A stretch of 16,776 bases of DNA, from NCBI GenBank assembly GCA_937886445.1, contig CALGBY010000058.1, positions 1 to 16,776 on the forward strand. The letters are read 5' to 3'. This DNA comes from an uncultured Clostridia bacterium (GTDB lineage: Bacteria; Bacillota; Clostridia; Christensenellales; Aristaeellaceae). This document shows, one piece after another, positions 68 to 16,209 of the stretch (position 1 is its first letter; each line of letters starts with the position of its first letter). The position numbers and the translations under genes were made by a program. The notes beneath the pieces were generated by a model, which saw only the letters and a list, made by a program, of their open reading frames with translations, searched no databases and had not been told where the DNA came from.

Positions 68-2143
68 TCAGTATCTCTGTCCGACGATCTTTTCGGAAAT
101 GCTCCTGGGCACTTCCTCATAGTGGTCGAACTGCATCGTGTACATGCCTCTGCCCTGAGTGCGGCTGCGCAGATCAGTGGCATAGCCGAACATCTCGCTG
201 AGAGGCACGAAAGAATGGATGCTCTGTTCACCCGTGCGGGGCTCGATGGAATCGATCCTGCCGCGGCGGGAGTTGAGATCGCCCACCACATCACCCAGAT
301 ACTGATCCGGAACGATGGTTTCCACCTTCATGCAGGGCTCAAGCAGCCGTTCCTCGGCCTTTTTGAGCGCTTCCTTGAACGCCATGGAACCGGCGATCTT
401 GAAAGCCATTTCGGAGGAGTCCACCTCGTGGTAGGAACCGTCCAGCAGAGTGGCCTTGAAATCCACCACCTCGTAGCCGCCCAGAGAACCGGCCTGAGCC
501 GCTTCCCGGATACCGGCATCGATGGGAGCGATGTATTCCTTGGGCACAACGCCGCCGACGATCTTGTTTTCAAACAGATAACCCTCGCCAGGGTTTCTGG
601 GCTCTATCTCGATCACGCAGTGGCCGTACTGGCCATGGCCGCCGGTCTGCCGCACGAAGCGGCCCTCCGCCTGGCACTTACGGGTGACGGATTCCTTGTA
701 GGCTACCTGGGGCTTGCCCACGGTGGCTTCTACCTTGAACTCCCGCATCAGTCGATCCACAATGATCTCCAGATGCAGTTCACCCATGCCGGCGATAATG
801 GTCTGGCCGGTCTCCTGATCGGTATAGGTCTTGAAAGTGGGGTCTTCCTCGGCCAGCCTCGCCAGCGCCAGCGCCATCTTGTCCTGACCGGCCTTGGTCT
901 TGGGCTCGATAGCGACCTGGATAACGGGATCCGGGAATTCCATATTTTCAAGCACGATGGGTGCGCTTTCATCGCACAGCGTATCGCCAGTCACGGTCTC
1001 CTTGAGACCTACCGCCGCGCCGATCTCGCCGGTGTAGACCTGGTCCACATCCTCACGGTGATTGGCGTGCATCATCACGATGCGGCTGAAGCGTTCACGC
1101 CTTCCCTTCGTGGAATTGTACACATAGCTGCCTGTCTGGGCCGTACCGGAGTAGACACGGAAGAACGCGAGCTTGCCCACAAAGGGGTCAACGGCGATCT
1201 TGAACGCGAGGGCGGAGAAGGGCTCGCTGTCGTCGGCATGACGAACAACTTCCTTTTCGCTGTCCCTGGGATCTGTTCCGGTCACGGGCTTGATATCCAG
1301 CGGCGACGGCAGATACGCAACGATGGCATCCAGCAGCGGCTGTACGCCCTTATTGCGGTAAGAAGAGCCGCACAGTACGGGCACCAGCCTGCATCTGACG
1401 GTCGCTTCGCGCAGAGTAGAGATGATCTCCTCTTCGGTCAGCTCCTCGCCGGCGAAGAATTTCTCCATCAGCTCATCATTCTGTTCGGCAATGGATTCCA
1501 GCATTTTATCTCTGGCTTCCTCCGCCTCAGAAAGGATGTCGGAAGGAATTTCTTCATCGCGGATGTCTTTGCCTTCCTCATCGTAGTAAACCTCGGCCCT
1601 CATCCTGACCAGATCGACGATTCCGCGGAAGTTGCCTTCCTTGCCGATCGGCAGCTCAATGGGCACGGCATTGGCATTCAGACGGCTCTTCATCATTTCC
1701 ACAACACGGTGAAAATCAGCGCCGGTGATATCCATTTTGTTTACATAGGCGATGCGGGGCACATTGTATTTGTTGGCCTGACGCCACACGGTCTCGCTCT
1801 GGGGCTCAACGCCGCCTTTCGCGCAGAACACGGCTACGGCACCGTCCAGCACTCGCAGTGAACGTTCTACTTCCACCGTAAAATCCACATGGCCCGGGGT
1901 ATCGATCAGATTGATGCGGTGACCCTTCCACTGGCAAGTGGTAGCGGCGGAGGTAATGGTGATACCGCGCTCCTGCTCCTCCTCCATCCAGTCCATCGTG
2001 GCGGCGCCTTCGTGCACCTCGCCCAGGCGATGCGTTCTTCCGGTATAGAAGAGGATGCGCTCGCTGGTGGTCGTTTTTCCGGCGTCGATATGCGCCATGA
2101 TGCCGATGTTGCGGACTTTTTCAAGGGGATGACTTCTTGGCAT
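68..2143 (-). CDS. fusA: Elongation factor G
   Basis: 691-aa ORF with GTPase motifs [17 protein letters not shown] and NKMD and full-length EF-G-like sequence. AGGAG RBS (rc of 2152-2156). Position is between rpsG and tuf. Confidence 0.97.
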
Positions 2144-2179
2144 GCGGTTAACTCCTGTAATAATTTATATACGGAAGAA

Positions 2180-2650
2180 TTACCAGCGGTAGTGGGCGAA
2201 AGCCTTGTTGGCTTCGGCCATACGGTGCATTTCTTCCTTACGCTTTACGGCGTTGCCGGTGTTGTTGGCGGCATCCATCAGTTCGGCGGCCAGGCGCTCA
2301 GCCATGGTCTTCTCACCGCGGGTGCGGCTGAAATCAACGATCCAGCGGAGAGCCAAGGTCTGCCTTCTTTCGGGACGGATCTCGATAGGCACCTGGTAGG
2401 TGGCGCCGCCCACGCGGCGGGCCTTTACTTCCAGCTGGGGCATAACGTTGTTAAGCGCTTCCTGGAAGACTTCGTTGCCTTCCTTACCGGTCTTTTCCTT
2501 GATCATCTCAAAAGCGTTGTAGCAAACCTGCTGGGCAACGCCGCGCTTGCCGTCGAGCATGATCTGGTTGATAAGCTTGGTCACTACCACGGTGCCGCAT
2601 ACGGGATCGGGCAGGACTTCACGCTTGGGGATAAATCCACGACGTGACAT
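2180..2650 (-). CDS. rpsG: 30S ribosomal protein S7
   Basis: 156-aa ORF running MSRRG...KAFAHYRW, typical S7 length and termini. AAGGAGG RBS (rc of 2658-2664). str-operon context. Confidence 0.97.
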
Positions 2651-2847
2651 ACATTAGCCTCCTTAAGTAGCGATCCTCTTTTTGCTTTTCCTTCGCTGTC
2701 CGGAGCATGTCAGCATCATGCTCTTCCGGTTTCAGGCACCGGGCGGCATTTCCGGCACGGCGGGATAAAGTGTTCCGGCTTTATCTCCTGCCTTACGCAC
2801 CGCAAAGCCACCGGGCGGCAGCACATCGGAAAAACGTTTCGGGATCC

Positions 2848-3222
2848 TTATTTCTTGGGACGCTTGGCGCCGTACAGAGATCTTGCCTGCATACGCTTGG
2901 CAACACCGGCAGTATCGAGCGCGCCGCGGATGATGTGGTAACGGACGCCGGGCAGGTCACGTACACGACCGCCGCGGATGAGCACCACGCTGTGTTCCTG
3001 CAGATTGTGGCCGATTCCGGGAATGTAGCAGGTACCTTCGATGGAATTGGTCAGGCGGATTCTCGCGATCTTACGAAGAGCGGAGTTCGGCTTCTTGGGC
3101 GTCATTGTTTTAACGCTCAGGCAGACGCCGCGCTTCTGCGGGCAACCCTGCAGGATGGGTGCTGTGGACTTCTTGACAACCTTTTCTCTTCCCTTGCGGA
3201 TCAGCTGATTGATCGTCGGCAT
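2848..3222 (-). CDS. rpsL: 30S ribosomal protein S12
   Basis: Tracked ORF 2848..3399 is over-extended. The real start is the internal ATG at 3222 ([12 protein letters not shown]...), preceded by AGGAGG (rc of 3231-3236). 124 aa with [11 protein letters not shown] and GGRV(R)DLPGVRYH motifs. Confidence 0.95.
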
Positions 3223-3417
3223 GGAAGCACCTCCTGATAATTGTTCGGAGCCTGCCGAAACAGGTCCTCCTCCTATAAAATCCCCGCAACCCTCGGGAAT
3301 ATATAGTCTTAATGATTTTTGTGCTTTCAGGCGTTTTTTCCACCTTTTCATGCGATTTACGGGATACCCGTCATTGCATTCAAAGCACAGTTGCCGCATA
3401 GTACAGACAACTATAAC

Positions 3418-3807: not shown

Positions 3808-4716
3808 CTACATATAGGTGCCGTATATGCTTCTGAATCTGGTAGGCGTACAGCTGTGTATCTGACGGAAGATGCGGTTGAAGGTGGCAAGGCTGCGGAA
3901 GCCGGATTCCCTGGCTACCTCGGCCACGGGCTTTCTGGTGTGCAGCAGCATCTCATCCGCCACATTCAGCCTCCGCCGGTTCAGATATTCCACAAAGGTA
4001 AGGCCGGTAAAGGAATTGAAGGAGCGGGAAAAATAGAACCGGGAAAAGCCGGCGAAGGCCGCCACCTCTTCAAGCGTGATGTTTTTCCTGAAATTCTGCT
4101 CGATAAAGGTGATCGCGCTGTTCATCAGCTCCGGATTCACGCTCTGCTTCGCGCTCTCGCTGCCGGGAAGCTCTTCCTCGTTTTTCACCATCGCCAGCTG
4201 AGCGTACATTTCCATAAAGAACCCGTAGCAGCGGGTGTTCCACAGCAGGGGTCTCTCGCTGTAGCACTGAGCGCAGCGCGTCAGCGTATCCGCGATGGCC
4301 TCGGCGTTCTTATCCCCCGCCCGCAGCACGCGCGGCGTATCCATCCATTCCTTGAGCGGCTGAAAATCGCGCATGGTAAGCAGCGGATCCGGCTCAAAGA
4401 GAAAGAGCAGACGGGAGGAATCCTCGCAGGAGTTCATCGAGTGGGTGTGGTTGGGAGAAATGAACAGCATATCCCCCTTTGCAAGCGATATGCGCCTGTC
4501 ATCCACCATAAAGATCACCTCGCCCTTCCTGCAAAGGGCGATCTCGATGGCGCTGTGGCGGTGCGGGGCATAGTAATCCGCCTCGTCCGAGGGCCACACA
4601 CGCACCGAGGAATGCTCGGCATAGGTGATGTATTCCTGTGTTCCGTTCAGGATGCGGAAACCGTCCGGAAAGCGTTTGTTTGCTCCGGAAGTGTTCGCTC
4701 TGTCTTCTGCTGCCAT
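3808..4716 (-). CDS. AraC-family transcriptional regulator (cupin-like sensor plus C-terminal AraC-type HTH)
   Basis: 302 aa. The C-terminus (ITLEEVAAFAGFSRFYFSRSFNSFTGLTFVEYLNRRRL...ESGFRSLATFNRIFRQ) is a typical double-HTH AraC domain. The N-terminus has a cupin-like HRHSAIEI...G motif. GAGGAAAC RBS overlaps the end of the upstream permease gene (10-nt gap). Confidence 0.85.
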   Translation of the reverse strand: MAAEDRANTSGANKRFPDGFRILNGTQEYITYAEHSSVRVWPSDEADYYAPHRHSAIEIALCRKGEVIFMVDDRRISLAKGDMLFISPNHTHSMNSCEDSSRLLFLFEPDPLLTMRDFQPLKEWMDTPRVLRAGDKNAEAIADTLTRCAQCYSERPLLWNTRCYGFFMEMYAQLAMVKNEEELPGSESAKQSVNPELMNSAITFIEQNFRKNITLEEVAAFAGFSRFYFSRSFNSFTGLTFVEYLNRRRLNVADEMLLHTRKPVAEVARESGFRSLATFNRIFRQIHSCTPTRFRSIYGTYM

Positions 4717-4726
4717 GGCTGTTTCC

Positions 4727-5650
4727 TCAGCCCTTTACGCTGCCCAGAGCCATGCCTGTAACAAAGTACTTCTGCAGGAAGGGGTATACCACCATGATGG
4801 GAACAGCGGAAATGACCATGATCGCGCAGCGGATTGTGATGGGCGTCACCTGCTTGCCGCTGCTGCTGGCGGCGGCGTCCACCGTCTGGTTGGCGGAGCC
4901 GGCCTGGTTCTGTGTGGAAGCCAGCATGGCGTTCAGCTTGTACTGCAGGGTGTGCAGTTCCTTTTTGCCGGCGGCATAAAGGCGGGTGTCGAACCAGCTG
5001 TTCCAGCTGCCCACGGCCACGAACAGGGCCACCGTAGCCAGCACAGGCAGGCACAGAGGAAGGATGATCGAGAAGAACGCGCGGATATCGCTGGCGCCGT
5101 CGATGCGGGCGCTCTCAAGCAGCGCCTCAGGCAGGCCGGCGATATAGGTGCGGATCACTACCATATTGAAACAGGAGAACATGCTCGGGATGATATATGC
5201 CCAGTAGGTAGATCCCAGACCCAGCGTGTTGTTCACAAGCAGGAAATTGGGGATCAGACCCGCGTTGAAATACATGGTGAACACCATGAGTACGGTGATC
5301 GGCTTGCGGAAAATGTATTCTCTCCTGCTGAGCGCGAAGGACAGCATGGAGGTAAAGAACAGGTTGAGCACCGTAATGATCACGGTTTTTGAAGTGGAGA
5401 TCCAGAAGGCCTGATAGATATCCTTATCGTTCAGCATCTGCTGATAGGCCTGCAGGGAAAACTTGCGGGGATACACGGTGATGCCGCCGCGTACGGCGTC
5501 GATACCGTCGTTAAAGGAAATGGCCACGGTGTTCAGAACGGGATACAGCGTAATGATCATGATCACGATCAGGATCACCGTGTTTACGATCGGGAAAGCG
5601 ATATCCCCTTTTTTTATGCGTTTCTTCATTCTCGCGGCAACTGTACTCAT
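4727..5650 (-). CDS. Carbohydrate ABC transporter permease (CUT1, LplC/YtcP-like)
   Basis: 307 aa, multi-TM. EAA-type loop (LPEALLESARIDGASDIRAFFSIILPL). GGAGG RBS (rc of about 5657-5661). 19-nt gap to the upstream permease gene. Confidence 0.85.
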   Translation of the reverse strand: MSTVAARMKKRIKKGDIAFPIVNTVILIVIMIITLYPVLNTVAISFNDGIDAVRGGITVYPRKFSLQAYQQMLNDKDIYQAFWISTSKTVIITVLNLFFTSMLSFALSRREYIFRKPITVLMVFTMYFNAGLIPNFLLVNNTLGLGSTYWAYIIPSMFSCFNMVVIRTYIAGLPEALLESARIDGASDIRAFFSIILPLCLPVLATVALFVAVGSWNSWFDTRLYAAGKKELHTLQYKLNAMLASTQNQAGSANQTVDAAASSSGKQVTPITIRCAIMVISAVPIMVVYPFLQKYFVTGMALGSVKG

Positions 5651-5669: not shown

Positions 5670-6620
5670 TCAGATCAGCGAATCTTCGCCGACTTTTTTG
5701 GAGATCGTATTGGCGCCCAGCAGCAGCACGATGGCCACGGCGGATTTGAAGATACCCGCGGCGGTAGCCAGCGAATAGTTGGGCGTCTGCATGCCCAGGC
5801 CGAAGCGCATCACGAATACGTCGATCGTCTGGGAACGGGAACGGATCAGTCCGTTGCCCATCAGGTACTGCATTTCGAAGCCCGCTTCCATCAGATGTCC
5901 GATATTCATGATCAGAAGGATCACGAAGGTGGACCGGATGCCGGGCAGGGTGACATTCAATATCCTCTTGAAGCGGCCGGCACCGTCGATGGCCGCGGCT
6001 TCATAGAGGCAGGGGTCAATGGAGGTCATTGCGGAAATATAGATGATGGTGCCCCAGCCCACTTCCTTCCACACATTGATGATGCCCTGCAGCCACCAGA
6101 AGTGCTGCGGCTCACCCAGCCAGAAGACGGGCTTGTCTGTGATGCCGAGGCCCGTAAGCACAGCGTTGACGGGACCGTCGGTGGCAAAAATGTTCTGCGA
6201 CATACCCACAACGATCACCATGCTCAAAAAATGAGGCAGATAGGTGACCGTCTGCACGGTACGCTTGAAGGCGCGGTTGCCCACTTCGTTGAGCAGTACG
6301 GCCAAAAGGATCGCGCTCACAGTGCTGAACACCAGGTTGATGATGCTCATCGCCAGCGTGTTCACGATGCTCTGGAGAAACTCGCTGTCGCCAAACAGCC
6401 ACACGAAGTGTTGAAGGCCCACATAGGTGCTTCCTTCTATGCCGGCCTTGGGGTCATAGTTCATGAAGCCGGTCAGCCAGCCCCACATGGGAGCATAGTT
6501 AAAGAGCAGCACATAGAACAGCATGGGCACACTCATGACGATGAGCCATTTCTGTTGTGCCAGCGTCTGCGCTAAGCTTTTCTTCTTTACAAATTCCGGT
6601 GTCTTTATGCTGCCTGACAT
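5670..6620 (-). CDS. Carbohydrate ABC transporter permease (CUT1, LplB/YteP-like)
   Basis: Multi-TM protein with EAA loop (YEAAAIDGAGRFKRILNVTLPGI). The tracked start at 6626 is a TTG. The ATG at 6620 sits 9 nt after AGGAG and is preferred. Confidence 0.85.
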   Translation of the reverse strand: MSGSIKTPEFVKKKSLAQTLAQQKWLIVMSVPMLFYVLLFNYAPMWGWLTGFMNYDPKAGIEGSTYVGLQHFVWLFGDSEFLQSIVNTLAMSIINLVFSTVSAILLAVLLNEVGNRAFKRTVQTVTYLPHFLSMVIVVGMSQNIFATDGPVNAVLTGLGITDKPVFWLGEPQHFWWLQGIINVWKEVGWGTIIYISAMTSIDPCLYEAAAIDGAGRFKRILNVTLPGIRSTFVILLIMNIGHLMEAGFEMQYLMGNGLIRSRSQTIDVFVMRFGLGMQTPNYSLATAAGIFKSAVAIVLLLGANTISKKVGEDSLI

Positions 6621-6686
6621 AAACAAATGCTCCTTTCCAAAAAGTCATGGGGAGAGCAGTGCTCTCCCCATGACCCGAAAGATTAA

Positions 6687-8348
6687 TTACTCGCCGAGAG
6701 CTTCCTTAACGAGCTTGAGAACTTCTTCCTGCATGAAAGCAGAGTAGATCTCGCAGGAGGGGTTGATCCTCTCAACGAAAGCGTCCCAGGTAGCGTCAAA
6801 GTCAGCGGGAGCAGCCATGATGACCTTGGGCAGGTCTTCATCCTGGTAGGCCAGGAACTGCTGGTTGTAAACGAGGTCGATGGGGGTCTTGTCGATCTGC
6901 CAGGCTTCTCCGTAGGGAGCCAGCTCCAGCGTCTTGTCGAACACATCACCGGGCACCTTCAGGCCGCAGGCGGCGAGGAAGTCGATGGTGTACTGATCCA
7001 TCATACCGAAGTACATTTCAGCCTGATCGCCGGGAGCCCAGGCGTTGCCGTCATCCTGCAGACCCTGCTTCTTGGGAGCGGATTCCCAGATGGCCAGAGC
7101 CTGGTTGGCGCGCTTCCATTCGGCGTTGTTGCGCTGATCGTACTGCTCCTGAGTCATGAGCATACGGCCGTTTTCTACATAGTAATCTTCGCCTTCGATA
7201 CCCCACTGGAGGATCTTCTGCCATTCGTCGCTCAGCAGAGCTTCAAGCAGGGCGATAACGCGCTCGGGGCACTCGCAGCCGACGGAGATACCGAAGCCGC
7301 GGTCCTTGTTCATGACGGTACCATTTACATAGTGCTCGTCGATCTTGCCGTAGCCATAGCTCTCGTCATAAACGAGGGGAATGCCCAGGTAGGTGTTCTC
7401 ATACATGCCGGCATCCTTCAGCGCCTGATCAGCAGTGCCGAAGTCCCAGCCCTGGTCGAACATACCGAGTACGATGCCGGAAGAAAGCTGGGCAATGTAC
7501 TGGTCATAGTTCATAACGAAGGTGTCAGCCTTGATGATGCCCTTGTTGAATTCTTCGTTCAGCTTGGCATAGTAGGGCTTGGCATAGGGCTGATTGATGA
7601 AGGTAACGGTCTTGTATTCGGGGGTGGTGATGTCGATGAGGACTTCACCGTCATTGGGACGGCCCATCAGATGCTGTACGGGGTTGATCAGGCAGAAATG
7701 ACGCCAGTCTTCGCACAGGATGTCAAAGCCGATGTATTCGGTGCCGTTCTTATCGGTGGGGTTGGCAGCGAGGAAGCGCTCGATCAGGTCGAAGTATTCA
7801 TTCAGGGTGGTGGGGATCACGTAGTTGTTCCACGCGATGACCTGCTTCTGGATGAAGAACATGGGGCCGTTGGGAGCGTTCTGCACCTGGCCGTTGTAGT
7901 TGATGCCGTAGTTGGGGATGATGTACAGTTTGCCATCATGCAGCAGCTGGGCAATGCGGTTGTCGGTGTAGATGTGCTTGTAGAGGTTGGGAGTGCCTTC
8001 CTCGGTGATGTAGGGCAGCATATCGATGAGAGCGCCGGCGTTCTCAAGGATCTCGGCAGAGTTGCCGCCGTCCCACAGGTCGGGATAGTTCTCTTCGCCG
8101 CCGGCAAGCTTGATGCCGAGGGTCTCGTTCAGGTCGCCGGTCAGGAATTCGATCTCAAACTTGATGCCGAATTCTTCTTCGATCTTCTTGTAGATCTTGT
8201 TGTCTTCGGTAGGCTGGTCACCGGGATCGCCGCGGAACACGGTGAGGGTGATCGCTTCGTTACCGGACTCTTCTTCCTCGGCCAGCACAGAGGGCACGAG
8301 GGATACCAGCATGATCAGAGCCAGTACCATAGCCAGGATCTTCTTCAT
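6687..8348 (-). CDS. Large extracellular solute-binding protein of the sugar ABC transporter (LplA-like)
   Basis: About 553 aa. Start moved to the ATG at 8348 (MKKILAMVLALIMLVSLVPSVLA/EEEE), 7 nt after GGAGG (rc of 8356-8360). It has an N-terminal signal peptide. Size and operon position are typical of LplA-type SBPs. First gene of the SBP-permease-permease-AraC operon; no ATPase gene is present. Confidence 0.85.
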   Translation of the reverse strand: MKKILAMVLALIMLVSLVPSVLAEEEESGNEAITLTVFRGDPGDQPTEDNKIYKKIEEEFGIKFEIEFLTGDLNETLGIKLAGGEENYPDLWDGGNSAEILENAGALIDMLPYITEEGTPNLYKHIYTDNRIAQLLHDGKLYIIPNYGINYNGQVQNAPNGPMFFIQKQVIAWNNYVIPTTLNEYFDLIERFLAANPTDKNGTEYIGFDILCEDWRHFCLINPVQHLMGRPNDGEVLIDITTPEYKTVTFINQPYAKPYYAKLNEEFNKGIIKADTFVMNYDQYIAQLSSGIVLGMFDQGWDFGTADQALKDAGMYENTYLGIPLVYDESYGYGKIDEHYVNGTVMNKDRGFGISVGCECPERVIALLEALLSDEWQKILQWGIEGEDYYVENGRMLMTQEQYDQRNNAEWKRANQALAIWESAPKKQGLQDDGNAWAPGDQAEMYFGMMDQYTIDFLAACGLKVPGDVFDKTLELAPYGEAWQIDKTPIDLVYNQQFLAYQDEDLPKVIMAAPADFDATWDAFVERINPSCEIYSAFMQEEVLKLVKEALGE

Positions 8349-8393
8349 AAAGGTTCCTCCTTCATATTTTGGCATTGCTGCCAGATGAATATA

Positions 8394-8421
8394 TTATTAT
8401 CCCGCACAGGCAATATCGCAA
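8394..8421 (-). promoter_or_regulatory. Candidate promoter of the ABC operon (TTGCGA-16-TAATAA)
   Basis: Minus strand: TTGCGA (rc of 8416-8421), a 16-nt spacer, TAATAA (rc of 8394-8399). It overlaps the third GGGATAA repeat. Alternative -10 choices exist in this AT-rich patch. Confidence 0.3.
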
Positions 8422-8838: not shown

Positions 8839-9855
8839 TCAAACTTCTCTTAAATCAAAGGCAGCAGCCCTCGCCATGCGGTTCATCACGGCCAGCGCCT
8901 CTCCCTTTACCGCCCAGCCCTCGGTAAGGATGCGGGTATAGCCCTCCTCATCCATCTCCCTCAGCAGAGCAAACAGCAGACGGGCGCTGTCCATCGCGTC
9001 CTTTCCCACGCTCTTCGCGTTCATCCCCTCATAAGATGCCAGATGATCCTCATGGCAGAGGACGCAGGTGTTTTCCTCGAGCGGATATTCCTTCAGCACC
9101 GCGCGGCGCACATTCTCCGCCTCTCCCAGAAACACGGTCATGCGCCCTTTCGGGGCATAGTGGCGGTGCTTCATGCCGGGGCTGGGGGCTTTTTCATTTT
9201 CCCGCAGCGGGCGCATCACGCTGTCCGCCACGCTGCAGCCGCCGCACACGGCGGCCACCATCTCCTGTGTGACCGCGCCGGGGCGGAAGATCACGGGCTC
9301 GGGGCCGGATACATCCAGCACCGTGCTTTCCACGCCCACCCGGCAGGCCCCGCCGTCAATGATCAGCGGGATGCGCCCGTTCATATCCTCAAACACATGC
9401 TGCGCGGTCGTAGGGCTGGGGCGGCCGCTCAGGTTGGCGCTGGGCGCGGCGATGGGCGTGCCCGCGGCGGCGATCAGCGCGAGCGCGGCGGCATGGTCGG
9501 GCATGCGTATCCCCACGGTATCAAGGCCCGCCGTGGTCACATCCGGCACGGAGGAGGTTTTCGGCAGAAGCATGGTGAGCGGTCCGGGCCAGAACGCGGC
9601 GGCCAGCTTTTTCGCGTTCCCGTTGATCTCACACAGGCCGTCCAGCATATCTAATGAAGAAATGTGTACGATGAGCGGGTTGTCCTGCGGACGGCCCTTG
9701 GCGATAAAAATGCGTTTTACGGCTTCGGCGTTCAGCGCGTCCGCGCCCAGGCCGTACACCGTTTCGGTGGGAAAGGCCACCAGTTCCCCTTTCCGGATCA
9801 GCTCACCCGCCTCGCGGATGCTCTCCTCTCCGGGCAGAACGATGCGTGTATCCAT
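8839..9855 (-). CDS. tsaC: L-threonylcarbamoyladenylate synthase (Sua5/YwlC-type TsaC, with C-terminal Sua5 domain)
   Basis: 338 aa. N-terminal YrdC signature (VAFPTETVYGLGADALNAEAVKRIFIAKGRPQDNPLIVHI) followed by a long C-terminal extension typical of Sua5. 21-nt gap after the GH13 gene. Confidence 0.9.
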   Translation of the reverse strand: MDTRIVLPGEESIREAGELIRKGELVAFPTETVYGLGADALNAEAVKRIFIAKGRPQDNPLIVHISSLDMLDGLCEINGNAKKLAAAFWPGPLTMLLPKTSSVPDVTTAGLDTVGIRMPDHAAALALIAAAGTPIAAPSANLSGRPSPTTAQHVFEDMNGRIPLIIDGGACRVGVESTVLDVSGPEPVIFRPGAVTQEMVAAVCGGCSVADSVMRPLRENEKAPSPGMKHRHYAPKGRMTVFLGEAENVRRAVLKEYPLEENTCVLCHEDHLASYEGMNAKSVGKDAMDSARLLFALLREMDEEGYTRILTEGWAVKGEALAVMNRMARAAAFDLREV

Positions 9856-11857: not shown

Positions 11858-11886
11858 TGGTCAGAAGCGGATTTGTATGCTATAAT
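11858..11886 (+). promoter_or_regulatory. Candidate extended -10 promoter for the paralogue operon (TGcTATAAT)
   Basis: Perfect TATAAT at 11881-11886 with TGC at 11878-11880. Weak -35 TGGTCA at 11858-11863 (17-nt spacer). About 55 nt upstream of the first paralogue. Confidence 0.5.
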
Positions 11887-11941: not shown

Positions 11942-12601
11942 ATGAAAAAGTACCTTTGTCTGCTCGCCGTAATAGGGCTGCTGCTGCCCTCCGCGTGCTT
12001 CGCCCTGCAATTGAAAATGCCCGAAATGAGCGAGAAAAACAGTTATTCCTACGAAAACCCCGTGCTGGGCTATTCACTGCGCGTGCCGAAGGCGCTTGTT
12101 TCCCTGCCGGACAGCGATCTTGCGGAAATACTTGACAACGCGCACAGCAGAGCCGGGTTCGGCGAGGACGATTATCTGTACGATGTACGCATATGGGGCA
12201 TGGCCGCCTCCGCCTCCGATACACTGGTGCTTGAGGTCCAGCTGAAAAAGTGCACTCATACCGATTTTGAAACAGAGGTGGCAAACGCGCCCAACTACAG
12301 TGAAAGGCAGGAGGCGCAGCAGGCCGAACAGGGAAACGATGTAAGCATCACCATGCTGCACGACGGCATGCTGCGCGAGACCCCGGCGGGCACCATGCTG
12401 GAAATGGCCTGCGTATGGCACTATACGGACGCAGACGGCACCCCCCGCGATACCATGCATGTGTATTATGATTACTACTGCAACAGCATCGAATACTGCT
12501 TCGTTCTGGAAGCGCCCGAACGCCTTGTGACCCTTGAAGGCATGCAGAAACTGCTCGCAGACATCATGGAAACCGTAAGGATCGAAAATGTGATAGAATA
12601 A
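11942..12601 (+). CDS. Secreted protein of unknown function, paralogue 1 of 3
   Basis: Start moved to the ATG at 11942 (MKKYLCLLAVIGLLLPSACFA/LQL), preceded by AGGAGG (11930-11935). It has a signal peptide. Colinear similarity to the next two ORFs (LGYSLRxP, LKKC, LHxGxLRETPxGxMLE, YYDxYxNxIEY, IENVI). Confidence 0.85.
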   Translation: MKKYLCLLAVIGLLLPSACFALQLKMPEMSEKNSYSYENPVLGYSLRVPKALVSLPDSDLAEILDNAHSRAGFGEDDYLYDVRIWGMAASASDTLVLEVQLKKCTHTDFETEVANAPNYSERQEAQQAEQGNDVSITMLHDGMLRETPAGTMLEMACVWHYTDADGTPRDTMHVYYDYYCNSIEYCFVLEAPERLVTLEGMQKLLADIMETVRIENVIE

Positions 12602-12693
12602 ACGGCAGCACCGCGCGGATGAGGCCGTGCTCAGCGTGCCGAAGAGCCGCGCGATACTGCCTGAGGATCAATAAAGAAAGGAAAAGATCAGCC

Positions 12694-13365
12694 ATGAAAA
12701 GAAAAGTGACCGCCGCGCTCTCCGTTCTGCTCACCCTGTGCATGCTCCTTCCGCTGTGCGGACAGGCCCTGCAGGTGCAACTGCCCGAAGTGACGGAAAG
12801 CAATTCCTCGCCCTACGCGGATCCGGTGCTGGGATATTCCTTCCGGATCCCGGACTATCTTACTCCGCTTCCGGAGGAATATGAAAAGCTGCTCCTTGAC
12901 GAGCAGAACAAGGAGAAGGAATTCGGCGATGAAGAGTGGCACTATGATGTGCAGGCCTGGTTTACCCCCGTTTCCTCCGGCGAAATGCTGTTTTTTGAGG
13001 TAACGCTCAAAAAGTGCAGCAATGAAAGCTTTGAAAACGAGGTGGCGCAGGCCCCATACTATGCCGAAAACGCCCGGAAGCAGTTCAGCGAGGCCGGGCG
13101 GGATGCGCATATCACCATGCTGCATGACGGCATCCTGCGCGAGACTCCCGCGGGGCAGATGCTGGAGATCGCGGTCATCCAGGAGGAAACCCTTGAAGAC
13201 GGAACACAGTCCTCTGAGCTGTTCATTTACTACGATTTTTACTGCAACACCATCGAATATATCTTCGCGCTCACCGCGCCGTCCCGGCTGGTATCGTACG
13301 AAAGCATGCAGAAGCTGCTTGACAGCATCGTAAACACCGCCGAGATACAGCATGTGCTTGAATAA
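12694..13365 (+). CDS. Secreted protein of unknown function, paralogue 2 of 3
   Basis: Start at the ATG at 12694 (MKRKVTAALSVLLTLCMLLPLCGQA/LQV). The RBS (GAAAGGAAAAG) is weaker. It shares the motif set of paralogues 1 and 3. Confidence 0.85.
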   Translation: MKRKVTAALSVLLTLCMLLPLCGQALQVQLPEVTESNSSPYADPVLGYSFRIPDYLTPLPEEYEKLLLDEQNKEKEFGDEEWHYDVQAWFTPVSSGEMLFFEVTLKKCSNESFENEVAQAPYYAENARKQFSEAGRDAHITMLHDGILRETPAGQMLEIAVIQEETLEDGTQSSELFIYYDFYCNTIEYIFALTAPSRLVSYESMQKLLDSIVNTAEIQHVLE

Positions 13366-13399
13366 AAACGACATAAACGATCATAAGGAGGAAACACCC

Positions 13400-14089
13400 A
13401 TGAAAAAAACCGTATGCGCGATCCTTTCCCTCATGCTTGCCCTGCTCCCCGCCCTGTGCACCGCGGAGCTGAGCCTGACCATTCCCCATGTAACGGAAGA
13501 AAACTCAACGGAATACAGCGACACCTATCTGGGCTATTCCCTGCGCATCCCCGATTTCCTCGTCAAGGTCAACGACACCTACCTGAGGCAGTATCTTGAA
13601 AGCATGAACGAAGGCAAAACGCCGGACAGCGCGGACTATGTGTACGACAGCCATCTCTGGGGCACGCAGGTCAGCAGCGAAAGCGCGATGATATTTGAAA
13701 TACAGCTCAAAAAGTGCACCAATGAAAGCTTTGAAAAAGAAGTGGAAATGGCTCCCCGCTATGAGGAGATCGAAAACGCCATGCTGGAAGAAACCGGCAG
13801 CAGCACCCGCATAGCGCAGCTGCACAACGGCATCCTGCGCGAGACCCCGATGGGCACCATGCTGGAAATGGCCTATACCGTCAACTATCTGCTTGATGAC
13901 GGTTCCTCCTCGCAGGAGACCCATGTCTATTACGATTTTTACTATAACACCATTGAATATATCTTCCTGCTGGAAGCGCCCACCGAGCTGATCACGGTGG
14001 AAAGCATGCAGCAACTGCTCAGCGAGCTGATGCAGTATGTGCAGATCGAAAATGTGATCTCCGATACCGCCGCCCCCGCCGCCGCGTAA
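13400..14089 (+). CDS. Secreted protein of unknown function, paralogue 3 of 3
   Basis: Start at the ATG at 13400 (MKKTVCAILSLMLALLPALCTA/ELS), preceded by AAGGAGG (13385-13391). Same motif set, plus a short C-terminal DTAAPAAA tail. Confidence 0.85.
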   Translation: MKKTVCAILSLMLALLPALCTAELSLTIPHVTEENSTEYSDTYLGYSLRIPDFLVKVNDTYLRQYLESMNEGKTPDSADYVYDSHLWGTQVSSESAMIFEIQLKKCTNESFEKEVEMAPRYEEIENAMLEETGSSTRIAQLHNGILRETPMGTMLEMAYTVNYLLDDGSSSQETHVYYDFYYNTIEYIFLLEAPTELITVESMQQLLSELMQYVQIENVISDTAAPAAA

Positions 14090-14148: not shown

Positions 14149-15171
14149 GTGTGTAAGATAAAAAAAGCTTTGACCGTTCTGCTTGCGATCCTTGTTTTCT
14201 GCAATGTCCTTCCGGCATCCGCGAAAACCCCGAAAAAAAACATATATGCCTACTTCATCAACGGCAGAGAGATCGACCGGCTTGCGGAAGCGCTGCCGGT
14301 CCTGGTCTCATACGGAACGAACGCTGTCATTCTGGACGAATCTGTCTTTCATTACCGTACAGAAGCGCAAACCGCTGCTCTGTGCGCAGAACTCAAAAGT
14401 AAAGGCATCACTCCTTACATCCGGATACAGGTATGGTATAGGGATGATCATTGGATCTCGCCGCTCACCCAGCCCGGCTTTCCGGTATTCCGGCAGGATA
14501 TTGTCGATCAACAAAAAGCCGTCATCACAGACTACCTGAAGCTGGGCTTCTCCGGCATTGTGCTCGATGATGTTCTGTTTCCCGGAACAGCGGAAAAATA
14601 CGGAACGGAAAACGCGTGCAGCGCCATTACGGAAACGGTGAAGCAGCTTAATGAAGCAGCAAAGAGCACAGACCCGGATGCTGTTCTTGCCGTGATGGTC
14701 AAGCCCGACATTGAAGGGCGGAACAGGATTGATTACGGTCAGGATGTTGCGGAAATAAGCAAAAACGCGGATATCGTTATCCCGATGATGTACATCGATA
14801 TTGAGAGATGGTCCGCGAAAGAAATGACCCGGATGATCGGGAAATTCGTTGATACAATACAGCCGGGCACTAAACCGGTCGTCGCCCTCCATACATATAA
14901 CGCGCTCAATAACGACGAACCGCTTTCCTATCAAAAGCTGTTTGATGATGTGAAAAGCGCGGTCCGGGCCGGTTCAAACGGTGTTATGCTGTGGCAGCTG
15001 GGGCTGTCGGAGATCATTGATTTTACAAAGCTTTCTTCCATGCCCGGCACCGGCGATCATGCGCCGCTCGCTCTCCCCGCAGCAGCAGCGCTGCTGTCTT
15101 CCTGTGTGTTCCTTTGGCTTCTCTGCTTTGAACGCAGGCGAAGCCGGAAGGCACGGCAGATCCGTTTTTGA
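14149..15171 (+). CDS. Secreted glycoside-hydrolase-like TIM-barrel protein (GHL10/DUF4015-like by eye) with C-terminal cell-wall sorting signal
   Basis: GTG start 12 nt after GGAGGA (14132-14137). Signal peptide MCKIKKALTVLLAILVFCNVLPASA/K. The motifs GFSGIVLDDVLFPG and ADIVIPMMY resemble GH-like TIM-barrel families. The C-terminus is MPGTG, then about 25 hydrophobic residues, then ERRRSRKARQIRF. No terminator separates it from paralogue 3. Confidence 0.7.
   Translation: MCKIKKALTVLLAILVFCNVLPASAKTPKKNIYAYFINGREIDRLAEALPVLVSYGTNAVILDESVFHYRTEAQTAALCAELKSKGITPYIRIQVWYRDDHWISPLTQPGFPVFRQDIVDQQKAVITDYLKLGFSGIVLDDVLFPGTAEKYGTENACSAITETVKQLNEAAKSTDPDAVLAVMVKPDIEGRNRIDYGQDVAEISKNADIVIPMMYIDIERWSAKEMTRMIGKFVDTIQPGTKPVVALHTYNALNNDEPLSYQKLFDDVKSAVRAGSNGVMLWQLGLSEIIDFTKLSSMPGTGDHAPLALPAAAALLSSCVFLWLLCFERRRSRKARQIRF
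15040..15168 (+). other. Tripartite sortase-type sorting signal (MPGTG / hydrophobic segment / Arg-Lys tail)
   Basis: The last 43 residues are MPGTG-DHAPLALPAAAALLSSCVFLWLLCF-ERRRSRKARQIRF. The architecture equals an LPXTG signal, but the first motif residue is Met. Confidence 0.6.
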
Positions 15172-15347: not shown

Positions 15348-15602
15348 ATGGAAAACGCTGAGAAGATCATCAACATCATCACCGATGACGAACTGGAAAA
15401 TGTGAACGGCGGCAGCATGCCCAAGGAAGACCCCGGCAAAGGCTACAAGTGGTACCAGATCCAGCCCGGCGACAATCTGAGCCGCATCGGAAGCATCTAC
15501 CACATCAGCGTGGACAAGCTGATGGCGATCAATCAGGACCGCCGCGGGATCAAGGACAGGAACCATATCATTGCCGGGTTCTGGATCCGCGTGCCCCGGT
15601 AA
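15348..15602 (+). CDS. Double-glycine-leader peptide with a LysM-domain core (84 aa)
   Basis: AAAAGGAGA RBS 8 nt upstream. The leader MENAEKIINIITDDELENVNGG fits the GG-leader consensus at positions -15, -12, -11, -8, -7, -4, -2 and -1. The core YQIQPGDNLSRIGSIYHISVDKLMAINQ...IIAGFWIRVP reads as LysM. It is followed by a strong terminator. Confidence 0.8.
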   Translation: MENAEKIINIITDDELENVNGGSMPKEDPGKGYKWYQIQPGDNLSRIGSIYHISVDKLMAINQDRRGIKDRNHIIAGFWIRVPR

Positions 15603-15684: not shown

Positions 15685-16209
15685 TCACACAAGACCGCGA
15701 AGACGCCTTTTCAGCGCGAGGGCGATCGGGATACCGGGGAAAAGCATCACAAAGGAATCAAGCGCCCACGCGGCCAGGGCGGTGGGGATCTTCAATTCCG
15801 GCCTCAGGCTGTACAGAACGCAGTCGATCACCGTTTTTACCGTGACCCCTGCCAGCATGGACAGCACGACGACTGCCGCCGCCTTCAGCCAGAACCGTCC
15901 AGACGGGGCATCCGCTTCCTTATACAGCACGCGTCCGCAGGAAAAGCCCACAATGGCGTTCATCACGATCCAGCCGAAAGCGATGCCGCGCTGGCTCATC
16001 AGCATGCTCTCGATCAACACGCCCGCCGCGCCGATGACCGCCGCCGGCACCGCGCCCAGATAGACCGCACCCACCGCCAGAGCGATATATCCCAGGTCCA
16101 GCTTGATATTGCCCGCCACCGGGATCTTCAGCAGCGTGGAAAGCACAAAATAGAGCGCGGTAAGCACGCCTGTCATCACAACTTTTTTCGTCTTCTTCGT
16201 ATTTTTCAT
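15685..16209 (-). CDS. Small polytopic membrane protein, ECF-transporter S-component-like (substrate unknown; folate/QueT-type size)
   Basis: 174 aa. Lys-rich N-terminus followed by about 5-6 hydrophobic helices rich in Ala/Gly (TGVLTALYFVLS..., LGYIALAVGAVYLGAVPAAVIGAAG...). Size and pattern are typical of solitary ECF S components. The family call is by eye only. Confidence 0.55.
   Translation of the reverse strand: MKNTKKTKKVVMTGVLTALYFVLSTLLKIPVAGNIKLDLGYIALAVGAVYLGAVPAAVIGAAGVLIESMLMSQRGIAFGWIVMNAIVGFSCGRVLYKEADAPSGRFWLKAAAVVVLSMLAGVTVKTVIDCVLYSLRPELKIPTALAAWALDSFVMLFPGIPIALALKRRLRGLV

Follow-up and report, generated by a model that had tools for sequence, protein, structure and literature searches.

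In the 16,776-nucleotide (nt) stretch of DNA that we analyzed (hereafter the window; contig CALGBY010000058.1 of an uncultured Clostridia bacterium), we found three consecutive plus-strand genes, here called A, B and C. They are functional paralogues, each copy under purifying selection, and they make up a three-gene expansion, specific to this species, of a family that is new in sequence but falls in a known fold class. Gene A (11942-12601) encodes a 219-amino-acid (aa) precursor with a predicted signal peptide at residues 1-21 (cut between CFA and LQ) and a mature part of 198 aa (isoelectric point (pI) 4.4). Gene B (12694-13365) encodes a 223-aa precursor with a predicted signal peptide at residues 1-25 (cut between GQA and LQ) and a mature part of 198 aa (pI 4.3), and gene C (13400-14089) encodes a 229-aa precursor with a predicted signal peptide at residues 1-22 (cut between CTA and EL) and a mature part of 207 aa (pI 4.1) that ends in a low-confidence tail, DTAAPAAA. 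These lengths are those of the products from the most plausible starts, which follow Shine-Dalgarno-like sequences (AGGAGG, AAAGGAAAAG and AAGGAGGAAA for genes A, B and C, respectively); the AGGAGG ribosome-binding site of gene A lies 6 nt 5' of its ATG. All three mature proteins are acidic (pI 4.1-4.4), single-domain and 22.5-23.7 kDa in size. The overall explanation that we favor, with slightly better than even confidence, is that A, B and C are secreted paralogues with a PsbP-type fold that arose by a lineage expansion and have an extracytoplasmic binding role.

The original prediction, made from the letters of the window, had described A, B and C as three diverged tandem paralogues of a secreted protein. 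We found the three open reading frames (ORFs) at exactly the coordinates it gave, and every conserved block that it listed is present and colinear in the three products: LGYSLRxP, YD..W, QLKKC..FE.EV..AP.Y, LH.G.LRETP.G.MLE.A, YYD.Y.N.IEY.F.L.AP, MQ.LL and I.NV. In full-length alignments, A and C are 47% identical, as are B and C. Gap-free alignments of the mature proteins cover 197-198 residues, with 47-49% identity (BLASTP, E 1e-63 to 9e-72), which is far above chance and slightly higher than the 40-45% that had been estimated by eye. At the nucleotide level, likeness among the three genes is left only in their 3' halves (67-84%), which points to a duplication of long standing rather than to a recent repeat. 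Three independent public assemblies (loci L012, L013 and L015) contain the A-B-C array with about 98% nucleotide identity; thus, the array is not an assembly artefact. Between strains, synonymous changes far exceed non-synonymous ones, and the ratio of non-synonymous to synonymous substitution rates (dN/dS) is 0.07-0.18 for A, B and C, with values of 0.10 for gene A against the sibling strain L013 and 0.14-0.18 for gene B against L012 and L013. These values indicate that A, B and C are real genes under constraint. Long antisense ORFs also run over A, B and C and are most likely by-products of the GC-rich coding sequence.

The family was called unrecognised in the original prediction, and this description stands. 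None of the three products matched a Pfam family at E ≤ 1, and PHROGs and PADLOC scans also gave no match; NCBIfam gave only chance-level sub-threshold matches (E 0.006-0.07), and sequence and profile searches of the PDB gave only chance matches, those to signal-peptide regions. When we scanned 30 family members against Pfam at E ≤ 10, nothing consistent appeared; there was one match to PsbP_2 (PF18933) at E 0.084, and no member scored above the gathering score of the PsbP (PF01789), PsbP_2 or DcrB (PF08786) profiles. PsbP_2 is therefore the sole named family of the fold class discussed below that is touched in sequence, by 1 of the 30 members and not significantly, and none of A, B and C matches it at E ≤ 10. 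A word-indexed search of 5.8 billion proteins returned 8 family clusters, and an exhaustive hidden Markov model (HMM) search of 1.84 billion representative proteins returned 43 clusters at E ≤ 1e-3, of which 12 pass E ≤ 1e-30. The family is present in 7 of 185,579 genomes that each represent a species; all 7 are from uncultured bacteria, 6 of the 7 are labelled Clostridia or Clostridiales, and the genome labels of three name human (Hadza, HRGM) and sheep-rectum sources. The sole name that any source gives to family members is 'hypothetical protein', and nothing relevant came from a search of the literature for secreted PsbP-like proteins of Gram-positive bacteria. A, B and C thus form part of a sequence family that has no name and very few members, all of which we found in uncultured bacteria, for the most part gut Clostridia.

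Within the 30-member set, identity to the gene C product goes down to 23-36%. E114, P150 and E186 are invariant across the set, K104, E156, D179 and several Tyr are near-invariant, and Tyr and acidic residues are abundant among the conserved positions as a whole. Some relatives are longer than A, B and C: P0010, P0014 and P0019 (533-547 aa) have about 340 extra N-terminal residues, and P0026 and P0035 (416-426 aa) have about 210 extra C-terminal residues, in both cases without a Pfam match. The gene at 6807-8408 of locus L037 is also among the relatives with extra fused residues. We considered whether the extra parts of P0010, P0014 and P0019 or of P0026 and P0035 are repeats of the family domain and rejected this, as no likeness was found by HMM and hhalign comparison. 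Low-confidence modeling hints that they may be further alpha/beta sandwich domains.

We modeled the mature gene C product with AlphaFold2 from an eight-sequence alignment. The model has a mean predicted local distance difference test score of 88.7 and a predicted template modeling score of 0.84, disorder is limited to the last nine residues, and the secondary-structure elements run in the order b-b-a-b-b-a-b-b-b-b-b-a (b, strand; a, helix). In a Foldseek search of the PDB with this model, there were 22 matches at E ≤ 1e-3, and matches to CyanoP, PsbP, BT_1490, Apa, LpqN, Tsi3, Mog1 and SciW had a probability of 1.00. The top match is CyanoP 2xb3 (E 8e-6), with a template modeling (TM) score of 0.53 (query) and 0.68 (target), followed by plant and algal PsbP subunits and then by BT_1490, Mycobacterium tuberculosis Apa and LpqN; just below the E 1e-3 threshold are Jonesia 3lyd, Tsi3, human Mog1, SciW (an Eag chaperone; E 5e-3) and MTC28. 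We also modeled P0010, the distant 533-aa relative, and its C-terminal family domain again matches CyanoP first (Foldseek E 4e-6). Confidence in the P0010 model is low over the N-terminal 340 residues, and we did not trust its matches outside the family domain (PA3488, TM 0.14-0.23, root-mean-square deviation 18) because of the low model confidence there. Previous work placed DcrB in the Mog1p/PsbP family (PMC7716261) and counted Mog1p and CyanoP among the structural neighbors of Tsi3 (PMC3792639). A, B and C are predicted to adopt an alpha-beta-alpha sandwich of the PsbP/Mog1p/DcrB class, whose hallmark is a central antiparallel beta-sheet with flanking helices. The guess of a PsbP/DcrB-like fold in the original prediction thus agrees with AlphaFold2 and Foldseek at the level of the fold; at the level of the family it does not hold, as there is no connecting sequence profile.

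The N-terminal signal peptides noted earlier in A, B and C were also recovered when we used a simple rule-based check (number of K/R residues, hydropathy of the h-region and small-x-small residues at -3/-1). Each product has recognizable n-, h- and c-regions: a basic n-region (MKK or MKR; 2-3 K/R), an h-region with a mean hydropathy of 2.6-3.2 and a cleavage site (CFA-L, GQA-L and CTA-E in A, B and C, respectively). By the same check, almost all full-length relatives have an AXA-type architecture (AAA-E, AVA-E, AFA-E, SAQA and so on). A regular-expression scan of the three products and of about 40 relatives found no canonical lipobox ([LVI][ASTVI][GAS]C), and no family member has a twin-arginine motif, the n-regions being KK or KR. 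The Cys near the cleavage site, which had been reported as conserved before an AxA-like site, is present in A, B and C and is missing from at least 10 members (for example P0007, P0016, P0020, P0022 and P0023), so it is neither family-wide nor part of a lipobox; the residue before this Cys (-1) is L or P in B, C and several relatives, and in A there is a P at -3. We therefore rejected a lipoprotein identity for A, B and C, as there is no lipobox and the Cys near the cut site is unconserved. The three signal peptides look like the ordinary type that is exported by Sec and cut by signal peptidase I.

Among known proteins, CyanoP and PsbP (PF01789; 2xb3, 2lnj, 1v2b and 2vu4) are the best matches to the C model (E 8e-6 to 7e-4, TM 0.45-0.53 for the query and 0.54-0.68 for the target), and what they share with A, B and C is the alpha-beta-alpha sandwich and an extracytoplasmic location. 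A, B and C differ from them in having no sequence-profile match and 6-13% identity, a Sec-type signal without a twin arginine, and a C model that is about 40-50 residues longer in the alignments. The host of A, B and C also differs: its gene neighbors and the carrier genomes point to non-photosynthetic Clostridia without a photosystem II context, and there are no photosynthesis genes in the window. The nearest analogy for an envelope role is with DcrB/DUF1795 (PF08786), LpqN, Apa and MTC28, which are bacterial, extracytoplasmic and of the same fold class; LpqN (6e5d), Apa (5zx9/5zxa) and MTC28 match the C model at E 1e-3, 6e-4 and 1e-2, respectively, and DcrB is not among the best 50 Foldseek matches. 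DcrB is anchored via an N-terminal lipidated Cys (PMC7716261). Unlike in DcrB/LpqN-type lipoproteins, no lipobox occurs in the three products or in their relatives; there is no sequence similarity, and the phyla are different. The Eag/DUF1795 type VI secretion system (T6SS) chaperones SciW and EagT6 also differ: they are cytoplasmic and encoded next to Rhs/PAAR effectors with N-terminal TM domains, but SciW is a weak match, A, B and C have putative signal peptides, and there are no Rhs or PAAR genes in the window.

To place the array in the family, we compared its members and their positions. In a neighbor-joining tree, A, B and C group with P0002 (a C variant of 84% identity) in a clade whose bootstrap support is 80%, and all other members fall outside it. 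In relatives, loci L001, L005, L006 and L035 carry only one family gene, placed where the array is in the window and oriented head-to-head with GH13, which is followed by Sua5/TsaC; in L005 and L035, the other flank of the single copy is rpoC-rpoB. In the lineage of the window, A is followed downstream by B, C, a further gene that we call D, a LysM gene and an energy-coupling factor (ECF) transporter gene, while in L005 and L035 rpoC comes directly after the single copy. The triplication is thus lineage-specific and arose within the lineage of the window's organism by tandem duplication. It is old because the synonymous divergence between paralogues is saturated (dS 1.0-1.4). The only other tandem family pair that we saw is in L002 (179-829 and 882-1512), with a uvrA-like ORF directly downstream; its second copy is much more diverged and frameshifted, which could be either a pseudogene or an assembly error.

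The three paralogues have not diverged evenly along their length. Strands b2, b6 and b9 and the initial half of helix alpha2 are 61-87% identical between the copies, with values of 0.77-0.87 in these three strands. In mature residues 30-58, which comprise helix alpha1 and its flanking loops, identity is 0.18-0.33, and it is about 30% in the second half of alpha2 and the following loop. The retention of all copies and the concentration of divergence at helix alpha1 and nearby loops fit, without demonstrating, a sub-specialization for partners or ligands. We also found a divergent gene C allele in L014, an 833-bp contig from another sample (1-833, corresponding to window 13293-14079), with 84% aa and 86% nt identity to gene C. 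From the last part of B through the B-C spacer into the opening codons of C, L014 and the window are 100% identical, and they are so once more close to the 3' end of C; inside gene C, identity falls to 66-84%. The gene-wide dN/dS of this allele is 0.17. Gene conversion from A or B was tried as its source and rejected: at 112 differing sites, A matches the allele and C at 43 and 37 sites, respectively, and B at 40 and 39. The allele, which comes from a single short contig, may be an allelic replacement by recombination or an assembly chimera.

What might such proteins do? Extracytoplasmic bacterial members of the fold class (DcrB, LpqN, Apa and Tsi3) act without catalysis, and we infer by analogy with them that A, B and C may have a non-catalytic extracytoplasmic binding or scaffold role; as a separate claim, this is possible and we offer it tentatively. 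A, B and C would act at the cell surface by docking onto a protein or an envelope component. The conserved beta-sheet core (GYSL, YD..W, QLK, H.G.LR.TP.G.MLE, VYYD.Y and EY.F) would provide a common scaffold or site, and helix alpha1, which is specific to each paralogue, would together with the loops beside it set which partner each copy binds. The three genes would probably be made as one transcript from a promoter upstream of A, with D as a passenger and not a partner. Several points speak against this explanation. The TM-scores are near the fold threshold (0.5-0.68) at 5-13% sequence identity, and the signal-peptide assignment is heuristic, coming from a simple rule. The role itself is an analogy, and the functions of the fold relatives vary widely (photosystem II subunit, Ran binding, immunity, chaperone, lipoprotein). 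The invariant or near-invariant polar residues (E114, E156, D179, E186, K104 and a number of Tyr) might just as well be signs of catalysis or metal binding. Co-transcription of A-C with D is plausible rather than demonstrated, being read from gene spacing.

The neighborhood of the array bears on the alternatives. The locus is core chromosome and not a mobile element, because rpsL-rpsG-fusA lies at the left end of the window (68-3399, minus strand) and rpoC-rpoB lies beside the family gene in L005 and L035. Divergent to the ancestral single family gene, within this rpoBC/rpsL-fusA neighborhood, are a GH13 gene of the cytoplasmic alpha-glucosidase type and Sua5. Upstream of gene A is a candidate sigma-70-like promoter (11858..11886, plus strand; TGGTCA, a 17-nt spacer and TATAAT, with TG before the -10; 10 of 12 consensus matches), which is a consensus match only, as the count of promoter-like sites in the region is not above shuffled expectation. 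The 289-nt spacer that A shares with GH13 has promoter-like sites on both strands and a weak 15-nt inverted repeat only. A search for cre-like operators was not above chance and found none in this spacer, and no riboswitch or other Rfam match was found. On the plus strand, there are no terminator-like sites in the A-B, B-C and C-D spacers; the two matches on this strand are short 5-pair stems inside A and B. Further to the left, a minus-strand gene (6687-8375) encodes a 562-aa protein with a signal peptide and no Pfam match at E ≤ 1e-3, which looks like a large sugar-binding protein of an ATP-binding cassette (ABC) transporter; it lies upstream of permease-like genes (4727-5650 and 5670-6626) and an AraC-family regulator gene (3808-4716).

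The GH13 gene raises the alternative that A, B and C are extracellular binders of glucans or oligosaccharides, co-regulated with GH13 and the nearby ABC sugar transporter as carbohydrate accessory proteins. The close subfamily is always head-to-head with GH13 (seven loci: the window, L001, L005, L006, L013, L015 and L035), the shared spacer has its promoter-like sites on both strands, the downstream neighbor in L003 is a secreted CBM_4_9 protein, and the abundance of Tyr and acidic side chains among the conserved residues would suit such a role. However, GH13 has no signal peptide (N-terminus judged by eye) and is paired with the housekeeping gene Sua5, the synteny may be plain inheritance among close relatives in a core chromosomal region, and the distant subfamily is not near GH13. 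The lack of a cre-like site or riboswitch argues against co-regulation, and carbohydrate binding is not directly suggested by the fold class. We consider this alternative unlikely.

A different neighbor is found in the sister subfamily, whose members are 31-40% identical to C. In all 22 of its loci with enough downstream DNA, which come from several species, an HAD-IB hydrolase gene (PF12710, TIGR01490) directly follows the family gene, and the stop-to-stop frames of the two genes overlap or abut in each case (L007-L011 and L016-L033; for example, 8863-9543 then 9543-10202 in L007). This pairing is the only strictly conserved neighborhood that we found for the family. It could mean that the family is an accessory to an envelope or phospho-metabolite pathway and that the window copies are served by an HAD gene elsewhere in the genome. 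There is, however, no HAD gene in the window or beside any close-subfamily member, and the HAD-IB protein has no signal peptide, so that a secreted protein would be paired with a cytoplasmic phosphatase and the two products would be in different compartments. No known pathway couples a family protein to HAD-IB, and we regard this alternative as rather unlikely.

Directly downstream of the array is gene D (14149-15171, plus strand), 59 nt 3' of gene C on the same strand, which lies outside the family; its product, 340 aa long and secreted, is an orphan that shows a weak likeness to TIM-barrel glycosidases. Its family matches are sub-threshold only (DUF4015 at E 3e-4 and GH18 at E 9e-4), it has no PDB relative by sequence, and its homologues form a single cluster at 98% identity in the 5.8 billion proteins. 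The D C-terminus has SSMPGTGD, about 24 mostly hydrophobic residues and then RRRSRKARQIRF, with an RRRSRK tail; Gram_pos_anchor/LPXTG models do not match D at E ≤ 1, and there is no sortase gene in the window. Gene D is missing beside the single-copy relatives L001, L005, L006 and L035. It is intact in L015, and in the sibling L012, 757 bp of D (window 14184-14940) are swapped for 319 bp of AT-rich DNA (L012 2310-2628), with identity of about 98-99% kept in A-C and in the LysM and ECF genes. Gene D thus shows strain-level presence/absence variation. The AT-rich replacement in L012 contains an 83-aa minus-strand ORF, apparently with two hydrophobic segments. A functional tie of D to A-C is unlikely because D is missing next to the copies of relatives and broken in a 98%-identical strain. 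The original prediction had linked the array to D as a co-transcribed, wall-anchored glycoside hydrolase (GH)-like enzyme; the same strand, the 59-nt gap and the lack of a plus-strand terminator-like site keep co-transcription plausible, but the link is weakened, with D an orphan without an LPXTG-model match, missing in relatives and broken in L012. The same single copies without a GH-like neighbor (L001, L005, L006 and L035) tell against its suggestion that triplication reflects diversification of specificity, which it expected to weaken in just this case.

Two further genes follow D. The LysM gene (15348-15602, plus strand) encodes an 84-aa protein with a double-glycine-leader-like N-terminus (DDELENVNGG), which has weak sub-threshold matches to bacteriocin GG-leader models, and a single LysM domain (PF01476, E 2e-8). 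The gene is conserved in the siblings L012 and L015, and its product may be a peptidoglycan-binding peptide exported by a transporter of the peptidase-containing ATP-binding cassette type; no such transporter is present in the window. Beyond it, on the minus strand, is a gene for an ECF-transporter S component (15685-16209).

If D or similar enzymes were the targets, A, B and C could be inhibitor or immunity proteins that neutralize glycosidase-type cell-wall or exopolysaccharide enzymes, whether D or those of competitors, as Tsi3 does the T6SS muramidase Tse3, and triplication would widen their range. Tsi3 is a small protein that neutralizes a glycosidase by binding (PMC3792639); it has the same fold class as the C model (4luq and 3wa5) and is among the structural matches (4luq_C, E 1.7e-3, TM 0.58 for the target, and 0.65 for the target with the P0010 model). 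D, with its weak GH-like matches, lies close by on the same strand, and the GG-leader LysM peptide gene comes after it. The divergent C allele with identical flanks in L014 is as expected under antagonistic selection, and the differences between paralogues are concentrated on one surface region. In contrast, PsbP and CyanoP match better than Tsi3, which has 120-126 residues in the matched chains compared to about 200 in A, B and C. No cognate effector gene and no toxin, T6SS or type VII secretion system gene is present in the window. The GH-like neighbor is not conserved with the family: D is an orphan, is missing beside single-copy relatives and is broken in a sibling that keeps A-C whole and under constraint. 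Gene-wide dN/dS stays low (0.17) even in the C allele of L014. We therefore find this alternative quite improbable. The same holds, with as little expectation on our part, for a wider version in which A, B and C would be diversified secreted Tsi3-like neutralizers or decoys of a Gram-positive gut bacterium, with distinct alpha1 surfaces, each directed against a different wall- or exopolysaccharide-degrading enzyme, hostile or self-made, or against a phage receptor-binding protein, L014 would be the trace of an arms race, and the family with HAD-IB would be an undescribed two-compartment envelope module in Clostridia.

The least probable alternative, which we think very unlikely, is a new enzyme on a PsbP scaffold in which invariant Glu, Asp, Lys, Tyr and His residues form a catalytic or metal-binding site: the invariance of E114, P150 and E186 and the near-invariance of K104, E156, D179 and Tyr hold across 30 diverse members, and CyanoP is a zinc-binding protein according to its depositors' description quoted in PMC3792639, but the named structural matches (photosystem subunits, Ran- and fibronectin-binding proteins, immunity proteins, chaperones and lipoproteins) include none described as an enzyme, and salt bridges buried in the structure may account for the conserved polar positions.

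Small tandem arrays of uncharacterized secreted proteins are common in gut Firmicutes, and what we describe here for A, B and C, a family new by sequence that has a known fold class and was expanded in one species, is only moderately unusual; the finding overturns nothing and opens no long-standing question. Bacterial members of the PsbP/Mog1p/DcrB class are mostly Gram-negative or mycobacterial, and several are lipoproteins. With a new family of the domain-of-unknown-function (DUF) type, this class would come to include proteins of uncultured gut Clostridia that are secreted and not lipidated. The triplication, the surface-localized divergence of the paralogues, the possible divergent C allele and the strict HAD-IB pairing in the sister subfamily are starting points for finding the function of the family.

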